Virus record (IMG/VR): IMGVR_UViG_2872185964_000001
Reading direction: 5' to 3' (one strand)
Source of the DNA: a virus
Taxonomy: Duplodnaviria; Heunggongvirae; Uroviricota; Caudoviricetes
DNA length: 11,611 nucleotides
Below, piece by piece: positions 3,001-6,000 of this stretch (positions are counted from its first letter, which is position 1; the number at the start of each line of letters is the position of its first letter). A program made the position numbers.

Positions 3001-6000
3001 GCATGACAAGGTCATCGGGCATTATCTGAACATAAAACACTATCAGTGGATTTGCCCCTATATTTCCAGACATCTGTTATCACTTAACCCATTACAAGCC
3101 CGCTGCCGCAGATATTCCCGTGGCGAGCGATAACCCAGCGCACTATGCGGATGCCATTCGTTATAATGTTCGAACGCCTCTGCAAGGTTCTTTGCTGCCG
3201 TTAACCCGTCTGGTTTGGGCATGATACTGATGTAGTCACGCTTTATCGTTTTCACGAAGCTCTCTGCTATTCCGTTACTCTCCGGACTCCGCACCGCCGT
3301 GTTCTTCGGTTCAAGTCCCAACATCCGGGCGAACTGGCGTGTTTCATTAGCCCGGTAGCATGAACCATTATCCGTCAGCCACTCCACTGGAGACGACGGA
3401 AGATCGTTGCCGAAGCGGCGTTCCACCGCACCCAGCATGACGTCCTGTACTGTTTCACTGTTGAAGCCGCCGGTAGTCACCGCCCAGTGCAGTGCCTCAC
3501 GATCACAGCAGTCCAGCGCGAACGTGACACGCAGTCTCTCTCCGTTATCACAGCAGAACTCGAACCCGTCAGAGCACCATCGCTGATTGCTTTCTTTCAC
3601 GGCCACTCTGCCTGTATGTGCCCGTTTCGATGGCGGTACAGCAGGTTTTCGCTCAAGCAACAGCGCATTCTGGCGCATGATCCGGTAAACACGTTTGGCA
3701 TTGATCGCAGGCATACCATCAAGTTCTGCCTGTCTGCGAAGCAGCGCCCATACCCGACGATAACCATACGTGGGCAGCTCTCCGATAACATGGTGTATAC
3801 GGAGAAGCACATCCGTATCATCAGTGTGACGACTGCGGCGGCCATCCATCCAGTCATCGGTTCGTCTGAGAATGACGTGCAACTGCGCATGCGACACCCG
3901 GAGACAACGGCTGACTAAGCTTACTCCCCATCCCCGGGCAATAAGGGCGCGTGCGCTATCCACTTTTTTGCCCGTCCATATTCAACGGCTTCTTTGAGGA
4001 GTTCATTTTCCATCGTTTTCTTACCGAGCAGGCGCTGGAGTTCTTTAATCTGCTTCATGGCGGCAGCAAGTTCAGAGGCAGGAACAACCTGTTCTCCGGC
4101 GGCCACAGCAGTAAGACTTCCTTCCTGGTATTGCTTACGCCAGAGAAATAACTGGCTGGCTGCTACACCATGTTGCCGGGCAACGAGGGAGACCGTCATC
4201 CCCGGTTCAAAGCTCTGCTGAACAATTGCGATCTTTTCCTGTGTGGTACGCCGTCTGCGTTTCTCCGGCCCTAAGACATCAATCATCTGTACTCCAATGA
4301 CTAGTCTAAAAACTAGTATTAAGACTATCACTTATTTAAGTGATACTGGTTGTCTGGAGATTCAGGGGGCCAGTCTAATCAGTAAGTTGGAGTCATTACC
4401 CGCCGACTGCCTGGAATTTATCTGGTCGTTACCCGAAAATTCTGTTGACCTGATAGTCACGGACCCGCCGTACTTTAAAGTGAAGCCTGAGGGCTGGGAT
4501 AACCAGTGGAAGGGCGACGATGATTACCTGAAGTGGCTGGACCAGTGTCTGGCGCAGTTCTGGCGGGTGCTGAAACCTGCCGGAAGTCTTTACCTGTTCT
4601 GTGGTCATCGCCTGGCATCTGATATCGAAATCATGATGCGTGAACGCTTCAGTGTGCTGAACCATATTATCTGGGCGAAGCCGTCCGGACGCTGGAACGG
4701 ATGCAACAAGGAAAGCCTGCGGGCGTATTTCCCCGCCACAGAGCGCATTCTGTTCGCGGAACATTATCAGGGGCCGTATCGTCCGAAAGATGCCGGGTAT
4801 GCGGCGAAGGGCAGTGCACTGAAACAGCATGTGATGGCCCCGCTGATTTCTTACTTTCGTGATGCGCGAGCTGCCCTGGGGATAACGGCAAAACAGATTG
4901 CAGATGCCACAGGAAAGAAAAACATGGTGTCGCACTGGTTCAGTGCCAGTCAGTGGCAGTTGCCGAATGAAAGCGATTATCTGAAATTACAGGCGCTGTT
5001 TGCCCGGGTGGCAGAAGAGAAGCATCGGCGTGGTGAACTGGAAAAGCTCCACCACCAGCTGGTGGATACGTATACCTCACTGAACCGGCAGTATGCGGAG
5101 CTGCTGAGTGAATATAAACATCTGCGGCGGTATTTTGGCGTGACGGTGCAGGTGCCGTATACCGATGTGTGGACGCATAAACCGGTGCAGTTCTATCCCG
5201 GGAAACATCCGTGCGAAAAACCGGCAGAAATGCTGCAGCAGATAATCAGCGCTAGCAGTCGTCCGGGTGACCTGATTGCAGATTTTTTCATGGGGTCGGG
5301 TTCGACAGTGAAAGCGGCACTGGCGCTCGGGCGTCGTGCAATTGGCGTTGAGCTGGAGACTGAACGTTTTGAGCAGACGGTTCGGGAAGTACAGGATTTA
5401 GTCAGCCAGAACGGATGATATTGAAGAATTAATTACGAGTCGTTATTATGCGGCTCCCGGCCCTTTAGCTCAGTGGTGAGAGCGAGCGACTCATAATCGC
5501 CAGGTCGCTGGTTCAAATCCAGCAAGGGCCACCATCACATACCGCCATTAGCTCATCAGGAAAGAGCGCCAGCCTTCGAAGCTGGCTGCGCGGGGTTCAA
5601 GTCCCCGATGGCGGTCCATTATCTGCATCATGCGTTGTTAGCTCAGCCGGACAGAGCAATTGCCTTCTAAGCAATCGGTCACTGGTTCGAATCCAGTACA
5701 ACGCGCCACACTTATTTTCCCTGGCTCGCTTTTGCGGGCTTTTTTTTTAAATGTCTCACAATTCAGACGGTTGACTGTTGTCTGGTTTGCGGGGAGTTTG
5801 TTAAAAGAAACTGGCATGGTGAATCCCCCTGTGCGGAGGGGCAATCAGCGAGTAGGTATATGGGATAATCGCGGATTCAGGTGCTGGTACTGAATTCACC
5901 GGGAGGCACCCGGCACCATGCAATGGCACATAGCGCCACTCTCCAGCCCCTCTCCGGAGGGGCTTTCTTGTGGGCAAAAAAAGCCCGCGCTGGGAGACGC

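Follow-up and report, generated by a model that had tools for sequence, protein, structure and literature searches.

The DNA methylase gene that adjoins IS1 and IS2 sequence in the stretch analysed here (the window, 11,611 nucleotides) is very probably a silent, recently 5´-truncated remnant of a late-region gene in a decayed Shigella boydii prophage. This prophage is lambdoid and Stx-phage-like and is integrated next to potC; all that is left of it is int, an xis stub, the methylase, the tRNA genes and a broken nanS-p, among which lie IS1, IS2 and an IS3-family element. The methylase is probably not expressed at a meaningful level, and its body would look intact only because the truncation is recent. 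The features of the locus are collected in Table 1.

Table 1. Features around the IS-methylase junction (window coordinates)
Feature	Position	Strand	Basis or remark
Excisionase (xis) remnant	2049..2296	-	First 22 nt, including the start codon, cut off by IS1
IS1, left 750 bp (IRL, insA, insB)	2297..3046	+	NCBIfam transpos_IS1; direct reading
IS2, 1331 bp, within the IS1 right inverted repeat	3047..4377	-	NCBIfam; direct reading
Second duplication copy (5 bp) and last 18 bp of IS1 (IRR tip)	4378..4400	+	Direct reading
IS-encoded extension of the methylase frame	4243..4400	+	Starts GTG 4243, ATG 4297, TTG 4387
5´-truncated M.EcoGI/GII-family beta-class N6-adenine DNA methyltransferase gene	4401..5418	+	Pfam, alignments
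Three phage tRNA genes (ileZ-type CAU, Arg UCG, Arg UCU)	5459..5708	+	ARAGORN

The methylase and its relatives

The gene retains the third base of codon 14 through codon 352 and the stop codon, that is, the last 338.3 codons of a 352-codon gene. The Pfam profile PF01555 (N6_N4_Mtase) is matched with 148.4 bits (cutoff 26.7; E 4e-43) over positions 1–219 of 221, with DPPY at 4462–4473 (residues 74–77 of the open reading frame) and FMGSGST at 5287–5307 (residues 349–355), which bears out the original statement that the catalytic motifs are intact; the AdoMet motif is intact as well. The motifs follow the beta-class order, IV (DPPY), TRD, I (FxGxG), and the same order, DPPY to TRD to FxGxG, has been described for the M.EcoGII family (PMC5778455). 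The 271 residues separating them had been taken for a long insert of about 270 residues that may carry target recognition; the length holds, but this stretch corresponds to the standard TRD and linker of the M.EcoGI/GII family rather than to an insert. An antisense ORF at 4429–4935 (168 aa) was dismissed, as it lies wholly within conserved methylase coding sequence.

M.EcoGII and M.EcoGI are non-specific N6-adenine DNA/RNA methyltransferases from prophages of E. coli O104:H4 C227-11 (Murray et al. 2018, PMC5778455), and the lack of sequence specificity of M.EcoGII has been described more than once (PMC5778455, PMC11551740). Its sequence is identical to the retained part at 311 of 335 residues (93%, residues 15–349), an approximate value given that the M.EcoGII sequence was machine-read from the PDF supplement of the SUPREM paper and carries a few reading errors. 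In a published list, homologs with about 93% identity are classed as 'nonspecific', and they showed no activity in lysogens (PMC6602927). The gene described here shares with M.EcoGII the succession of DPPY, a helical TRD with helix-turn-helix plus linker, and FxGxG, as well as the late-region position ahead of ileZ-argN-argO and the absence of an endonuclease partner. Unlike M.EcoGII, it lacks the first 14 residues (MLNTVKISSCELIN), with IS-encoded sequence in their place, has lost Q and all native upstream DNA, and carries the private changes R22W and V306I.

At the nucleotide level, the retained part is 95.5% identical to methylase genes of Stx2 phages and 95.3% identical to that of phage 1720a-02, the latter named as a close homolog in the M.EcoGII paper (PMC5778455). 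Taken together, the Stx2 phage, 1720a-02 and phiP27 (L24) genes are 84–95.5% identical over the whole retained length. They are sited between Q and the tRNA-stx cluster and have the same downstream synteny, three tRNAs followed by nanS-p; stx genes are absent here. There is no endonuclease gene next to the methylase, whose neighbours are IS elements and tRNAs, nor in intact relatives, where they are a 65-aa ORF and tRNAs. The orphan status proposed originally is thus upheld, and these comparisons support an orphan beta-class amino-methyltransferase of phage origin.

Among solved beta-class methyltransferases, 8urk/9c3u ('Methyltransferase'), M.RsrI (1eg2), CcrM (6pbd) and M.MboIIA (1g60) align both in the N-terminal half, which is catalytic, and in the C-terminal part, which binds AdoMet (E 1e-24 to 1e-15), and the 8urk/9c3u alignment includes a strand matching residues 8–14. 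The central TRD is not alignable, and the M.EcoGI/GII family itself has no solved structure.

The IS1/IS2 junction and the lost prophage DNA

Homology to intact phage methylase genes begins precisely at 4401, immediately after the IS1 tip; this nucleotide is the third of codon 14. Truncation of the gene at its 5´ end by an IS1 carrying a nested IS2 is supported. The N-terminus of the intact protein, taken from the alignment to intact proteins, reads MFNTVKISSCELIN followed by ADCLEF, and the coding loss within the methylase gene itself amounts to 41 nt.

The IS1, whose homologous DNA is annotated 'IS1 family transposase' in RefSeq, has inverted repeat arms at 2294–2320 and 4377–4403, and its two parts (2297–3046 and 4383–4400) sum to 768 bp. 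Its insB frame runs on into IS2. The inserted element has the length, imperfect repeats (3055–3087 and 4336–4368), two overlapping transposase ORFs and 5-bp target duplication (ATCAG at 3042–3046 and 4378–4382) of IS2, an IS3-family element, and is recognized by the NCBIfam models 'IS2 transposase TnpB' (725 bits, cutoff 597) and 'IS2 repressor TnpA' (276 bits, cutoff 229). The end turned toward the methylase is IRL, the transposase-start end.

While the IS1 length and repeats are those of a simple insertion, the 8–9 bp target duplication is absent: the left flank reads cgtcgagcg and the right flank cgccgactg. These flanks come from xis and from the methylase, respectively, two genes that a relative has at a distance of about 16.7 kb from each other. 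As the flanks differ and have distant origins, they point to a deletion or to IS1-IS1 recombination. Window positions 700–2296 are 99.9% identical to the potC-int-xis region of E. coli FDAARGOS_536, whose annotated xis continues 22 nt past the end of the match. In the FDAARGOS_536 prophage at potC, xis and methylase codon 14 are separated by about 16.75 kb, with Q in between. Consequently, the statement that only the extreme N-terminus had been removed is correct for the gene, but not for the prophage, which has lost about 16.7 kb from xis to the methylase, including Q and the small upstream ORF.

In intact phages, the methylase is located downstream of Q and a 198-nt ORF and upstream of the three tRNA genes. 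Since these tRNAs follow the methylase in all intact relatives, the locus corresponds to a Q-methylase-tRNA-(stx)-nanS late region. Of the full layout (Q, small ORF, methylase, ileZ-argN-argO, stx where present, nanS-p), the downstream half is present here and the upstream half is deleted. The neighbouring nanS-p is itself split over three frames and cut by the IS3-family element.

In intact phages, going by the lambdoid late-region layout, the methylase would be transcribed as part of the Q-dependent late transcript. Here, an IS1-associated event, be it an adjacent deletion or recombination of two copies of IS1, joined the IS1 right end to codon 14. At the xis end, this deletion took the first 22 nt of the gene; at the methylase end, it took the small ORF, the ribosome-binding region and the start codon, along with the first 13 and two-thirds methylase codons. 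The early region, Q and whatever promoter lay between Q and the methylase were lost from the interval. IS2 was inserted later, into the IS1 right inverted repeat.

Reading frame, expression signals and rival explanations

The open reading frame proposed originally (4243–5418, + strand) exists and comprises 391 codons, but it starts with GTG rather than ATG, the first ATG being located at 4297. It is open from 4222, after an in-frame stop at 4219. Read backwards from 4401, the frame does cross the last 23 bp of IS1 and then the IS2 left end, as had been claimed; in the pre-IS2 state it was closed 11 codons upstream of the junction. When walking upstream, start-type and stop codons are equally frequent (3/64 each), so that in about half of all cases a start would be reached first, and the open frame upstream of 4401 is no more than chance expectation.

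The native drivers of the gene, Q and whatever promoter lay between Q and the methylase, are deleted. A functional IS-fusion methylase would therefore have to be transcribed either by read-through that starts at the insA promoter of IS1 or from a chimeric IS2/IS1 promoter of low strength, and translated from one of the three IS-borne starts, giving low-level non-specific m6A in S. boydii. This is unlikely. It would be in agreement with the open frame and its possible starts, with the intact catalytic motifs in a body 93% identical to an enzyme of proven activity, and with the 343-aa CDS called by RefSeq. Furthermore, fusion promoters derived from IS1 and IS2 have been documented, as in IS2-ampC (Jaurin and Normark 1983) and IS1-bla (Prentki et al. 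1986) (PMC9330008), and here too an IS end directly adjoins a gene without its own promoter. Unlike in those cases, there is no -35/-10 pair of correct spacing across or ahead of the junction. IS3-family elements have their outward -35 in IRR (PMC9330008), while the IS2 end facing the methylase is IRL, and the IS1 tip provides no usable -35 with a -10 in the flank; hence, an outward -35 in a terminal repeat with a -10 at 16–18 bp, which defines an IS-generated fusion promoter, was not found.

The promoter scan detected no sigma-70-like sites on the + strand at 2932–5421. A relaxed scan of 4000–4430 returned four weak sites, against 3.4 expected from shuffles, that is, a chance count; the best of them, the near-miss TTGTCT-18-TCTAAT (4350–4379), counts in favour of a fusion, but position 2 of its -10 hexamer is not the key A. 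From the IS1 promoter-like site (2304–2331) to the methylase, the + strand showed no intrinsic terminator, so weak read-through transcription of the gene is possible, although a transcript from IS1 would necessarily include 1.3 kb of untranslated antisense IS2 RNA. Such RNA is a typical Rho termination substrate. As for translation, an SD is absent at every candidate start: anti-SD pairing is +0.3 kcal/mol at GTG 4243, +0.9 at ATG 4297 and -2.1 at TTG 4387, compared with a window background mean of -2.4 and -8.8 for int. The native methylase start is also weak (-3.3 kcal/mol); this test thus discriminates weakly, and a poor SD does not exclude translation of the IS-borne starts.

Any product would also lack a conserved structural element. 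The family N-terminal segment, M-x-N-T-V-x-h-x-S-x-x-L-h-N-A-D, predicted to form a beta-hairpin, is deleted here and IS sequence stands instead. L12 and N14 are conserved in at least 90% of 26 homologs (73–93% identical to the intact reference). In the AlphaFold model of an intact homolog, residues 4–7 and 10–13 are predicted beta-strands (pLDDT 80–89), while in the model of the 373-aa fusion the hairpin is not formed and leader residues 1–35 have a pLDDT below 50. The models are of moderate quality (mean pLDDT 64 and 58 for the intact homolog and the fusion, respectively) and were used for the N-terminal segment only; models of such quality cannot show a loss of activity. Any methylase product without the hairpin would probably be impaired. 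Finally, constitutive M.EcoGII expression is harmful to E. coli, and the natural host keeps the gene silent (PMC5778455); a constitutively active fusion would therefore be selected against. With no sigma-70 site facing the gene, no SD at the three IS starts and a leader that is disordered in the model, the IS-driven fusion proposed originally is not supported.

Low transcription and translation could also yield an inactive or unstable product that leaves DNA methylation unaffected. Such an expressed pseudogene would agree with the pervasive read-through that the lack of an upstream terminator permits, with the lower confidence and disordered leader of the fusion model and with the loss of the nearly invariant L12 and N14; the promoter and SD signals are equally absent for it, and we consider it distinctly unlikely. 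Very unlikely is an attenuated, domesticated M.EcoGII, weakly but constitutively transcribed from the IS2/IS1 joint or by IS1 read-through and started at TTG or ATG; beheaded or with an IS-encoded leader, it would retain part of its non-specific adenine methyltransferase activity and give sparse, motif-less m6A throughout the chromosome in one S. boydii lineage. It would be tolerated since N-terminal damage and poor translation would hold its activity below the toxic level.

Distribution, annotation and meaning

At least 13 S. boydii contigs, several of them independent complete chromosomes, carry the identical 373-aa junction-spanning protein, and the retrieved loci are nucleotide-identical over the IS1 tail and the methylase, an identity that follows from the design of the search, the copies having been retrieved through exact-protein look-up. 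At a position invariant in the family, one S. boydii variant carries S299G. A genome contig collection, which we take to hold one genome per GTDB species with Shigella inside E. coli, gave no exact match to the 42-nt IS1-methylase junction. The junction was likewise absent from complete E. coli genomes, 1746 of which have a best match of at least 80% query coverage; among the matches listed, those of these genomes begin at window position 4401.

Repeated IS copies could have been collapsed or mis-joined during assembly, as Shigella carries many copies of IS1 and IS2, and contigs of draft assemblies end at the IS1/IS2-methylase junction. An artefact of this kind is scarcely credible, given the exact junction product on 13 contigs, some of which are independent complete chromosomes, the nucleotide identity of the retrieved loci, the clean 5-bp IS2 duplication and the IS1 parts that sum to exactly 768 bp.

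Compared with six intact homologs, the truncated gene has only four private nucleotide changes, two of them synonymous and the others producing R22W and V306I, too few to give a selection test any power. The gene is a mosaic between homolog types; a pairwise dN/dS would thus mostly reflect divergence before the truncation. The frame intact over 338 codons, the few private changes, the identical protein kept in S. boydii and the normal CDS annotation at NCBI, not as a pseudogene, are counted against a silent remnant. Public annotations place the start either at ATG 4297 (373 aa, SPZ86614.1) or at TTG 4387 (343 aa, WP_072037218.1). No published S. boydii methylome was found in the literature.

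RefSeq annotation already covers this exact junction and protein, and the methylase family has been characterised, with M.EcoGII sold commercially. In Shigella, prophage genes are routinely truncated by IS elements. The RefSeq 343-aa 'DNA-methyltransferase' starts at a TTG within the IS1 terminal repeat, and a flag as 5´-truncated would suit it better. If, against expectation, an active fusion were produced, motif-less m6A in S. boydii would confound methylome analyses, and the restriction of S. boydii DNA in recipients could be blunted.

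The IS1–IS2–methylase junction

The layout of the junction (see table) was established by direct reading of the DNA, repeat finding and NCBIfam profiles. Alignment to intact methylase genes opens exactly at 4401. The intact gene has 1059 nt, with a product N-terminus of MFNTVKISSCELIN–ADCLEF, and 41 nt of it (13 codons plus 2 nt) are missing here.

Main features of the junction and the downstream region
Feature	Position	Strand	Remarks
IS1, left part	2297-3046	+	insA/insB
IS2	3047-4377	-	transposase; 1331 bp; TnpB 725 bits, TnpA 276 bits, both above curated cutoffs
IS2 target duplication	3042-3046 and 4378-4382		5 bp, ATCAG
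IS1, right tip	4383-4400		last 18 bp; IS1 total 768 bp
Methylase homology	from 4401	+	starts at third base of codon 14
DPPY motif	4462-4473	+	methylase frame
FMGSGST motif	5287-5307	+	methylase frame
Promoter-like site	5421-5449	+	TTGAAG-17-TATTAT
nanS-p (DUF1737 + SASA esterase)	6198-7584	+	three frames: 6198-6506, 6503-7138, 6883-7584
IS3-family element	7609-8765	-	two ORFs (100 aa, 272 aa); NCBIfam transpos_IS3; presumably resembles IS600 of Shigella
Bro-N gene	9843-10421		segment between IS copies, within 8822-11611
AlpA-like gene	10478-10735		same segment

Direct reading of the two IS1 flanks revealed no target duplication; the left flank is xis without its first 22 nt, and the right flank is codon 14 of the methylase. 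In the potC prophage of E. coli FDAARGOS_536, whose int/xis region is 99.9% identical to the window, these points are separated by ~16.75 kb carrying exo, dicB, immunity and replication genes, RusA, the antiterminator Q and a small ORF. Because IS1 lacks a duplication and its flanks lie so far apart in this relative, the event was an IS1-associated deletion, which may have extended from a single IS1 (adjacent deletion) or resulted from two IS1 copies recombining. The original prediction of an IS1 insertion removing only the extreme N-terminus is therefore right about the 41 nt of the gene itself, but not about a simple insertion. The deletion took away everything normally able to drive the methylase. 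In every intact relative examined, Q is followed by a 198-nt ORF, then the methylase, tRNA-Ile(CAU), two tRNA-Arg genes, stx (when present) and nanS-p; downstream of its truncated methylase, the window retains the three tRNAs and a broken nanS-p.

The flanks 2288-2296 (cgtcgagcg) and 4401-4409 (cgccgactg) share 6 of 9 bases despite belonging to unrelated genes. This is probably chance, but if IS1 had inserted independently at two sites before a recombination, the similarity could stem from the target preference of IS1.

The predicted ORF 4243-5418 is present (+ strand, 391 codons), but it opens with GTG, not the ATG claimed. In frame upstream of the methylase are a stop at 4219, a first ATG at 4297 and a TTG at 4387. 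At a random junction, start-type (ATG/GTG/TTG) and stop codons are equally likely per codon upstream, so that roughly half of such frames would reach a start before a stop; the open leader is not beyond chance. In silico removal of IS2, together with one copy of its duplication, leaves a frame that TAA closes 11 codons upstream of the junction. The long leader thus arose as a side effect when IS2 inserted later. IS2 entered 2 bp ahead of the insB stop codon, extending the InsB frame (2546-3133, +) 28 codons into IS2. Since its right inverted repeat is split and its transposase C-terminus altered, the IS1 copy at 2297-4400 is probably immobile on its own.

The 373-aa (ATG 4297) and 343-aa (TTG 4387) products have exact public entries (SPZ86614.1, WP_072037218.1), labelled as DNA methylase or DNA-methyltransferase of Shigella boydii or Shigella. 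The junction is real and common to a lineage, because the 373-aa product occurs on at least 13 contigs, several of them complete S. boydii chromosomes, and the IS1 tail and methylase are nucleotide-identical across all long loci retrieved. In CP026872.1 the match spans the entire IS1-IS2-methylase block. Among the matches listed, the junction is absent from complete E. coli genomes.

The methylase and its family

Both predicted catalytic motifs were found, and the ORF product matches Pfam PF01555 (N6_N4_Mtase) over nearly the full profile (148 bits). Over the 338 residues retained, identity to M.EcoGII is 93% (311/335); the M.EcoGII sequence was machine-read from the PMC11551740 supplement and contains a few reading errors. 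At the DNA level, the gene shares 95.3% identity with its counterpart in phage 1720a-02, named as a close homolog of M.EcoGII (PMC5778455). M.EcoGII methylates adenines irrespective of sequence context, is silent in its own lysogenic host and is harmful when expressed constitutively (PMC5778455). Homologs of ~93% identity are labelled "nonspecific", and STEC methylomes lack signal from them (PMC6602927).

A ~270-residue insert for target recognition had been proposed between DPPY and FxGxG. The stretch is no unusual insert: in the M.EcoGII model it comprises the catalytic-domain remainder, a TRD built as a four-helix bundle that includes a helix-turn-helix, and a helical linker rich in charge (PMC11551740). 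The methylase was correctly called an orphan, since no endonuclease gene accompanies it in the window or the intact relatives examined. In one homolog from a Logan assembly (P0016, 386 aa), an internal stretch of 34 residues (YKHLRRYFGVT…GKHPC) is duplicated in tandem immediately before the conserved (E)KP segment ahead of FxGxG. The copies resemble different allele types, which suggests recombination or an assembly chimera of two prophage copies.

The surrounding prophage remnant

The promoter-like site at 5421-5449 follows the methylase stop codon and precedes the first tRNA gene. All six intact relatives used for comparison keep both of its hexamers (TTGAAG or TTGCAG; TATTAT). The phage tRNA genes may therefore possess a dedicated promoter that does not rely on Q-dependent late transcription, and the remnant could still express them.

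Further downstream, the IS3-family element interrupts nanS-p after the three-frame stretch; the window strain has acquired extra frameshifts, since other S. boydii strains keep the first 462 codons in a single frame. The Bro-N/AlpA-like segment is oriented in CP026872.1 oppositely to two other loci (L006, L010) and is absent in some strains (L008). Moreover, the S. boydii loci (L005-L011) join the potC-side remnant via IS elements to cheA/cheW, genes that E. coli K-12 carries at a great distance from potC. Together, the variable segment and this distant joining point to IS-mediated inversions and large rearrangements around the remnant.

Expression and activity of a possible fusion product

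A consensus scan of the + strand (2932-5421) revealed neither a sigma-70-like site nor an intrinsic terminator. A relaxed promoter scan of 4000-4430 gave four weak sites, compared with 3.4 ± 1.9 in shuffled sequences. The top-ranking one, TTGTCT-18-TCTAAT (4350-4379), was created at the IS2/IS1 joint and has C in place of the critical A as the second base of its -10 hexamer. No -10-like hexamer lies in the flank at the right spacing from the IS1 tip TTGGAG (4387-4392). Known fusion promoters of IS2 and the IS3 family have the outward -35 in IRR (PMC9330008), and the end toward the methylase is IRL. With no sigma-70 site, relaxed sites at chance level and IRL facing the gene, the proposed IS-driven fusion is not borne out. 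Some read-through could start at the promoter-like site of IS1 insA (2304-2331). On its way to the methylase, such a transcript would traverse IS2 as 1.3 kb of antisense RNA that is not translated, where Rho would probably terminate it.

Anti-SD pairing at the candidate starts was +0.3 (GTG 4243), +0.9 (ATG 4297) and -2.1 kcal/mol (TTG 4387, 16 nt from the start), compared with a window-wide background mean of -2.4 and with -8.8 kcal/mol at the int start; this test has limited force, since the native methylase start is also weak (-3.3 kcal/mol).

The N-terminal segment shows a conserved pattern among 26 homologs (73-93% identical to the intact reference), with L12 and N14 at least 90% conserved. 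In the AlphaFold2 model of an intact homolog (moderate overall, mean pLDDT 64), it forms strands 4-7 and 10-13 at pLDDT 80-89. In the 373-aa fusion model (mean 58) the hairpin is absent and leader residues 1-35 fall below 50, which suggests that a fusion product would be impaired. Compared with six intact homologs, the methylase has only four private positions (two synonymous, R22W and V306I); in one variant from S. boydii, S299G alters a column invariant in the family. These counts are too small to demonstrate either constraint or decay, but they indicate a recent truncation.

An expressed and active fusion, possible but unsupported, is improbable; an unregulated active enzyme of the M.EcoGII type would be deleterious, which counts against constitutive expression of an active fusion. 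Most of the remaining probability falls to a product that is expressed but inactive. Very likely, the feature is a silent, recently beheaded M.EcoGI/GII-family gene, retained by inertia in an IS-riddled S. boydii prophage remnant. It is an ordinary feature, already in public annotation but mislabelled as an intact coding sequence.
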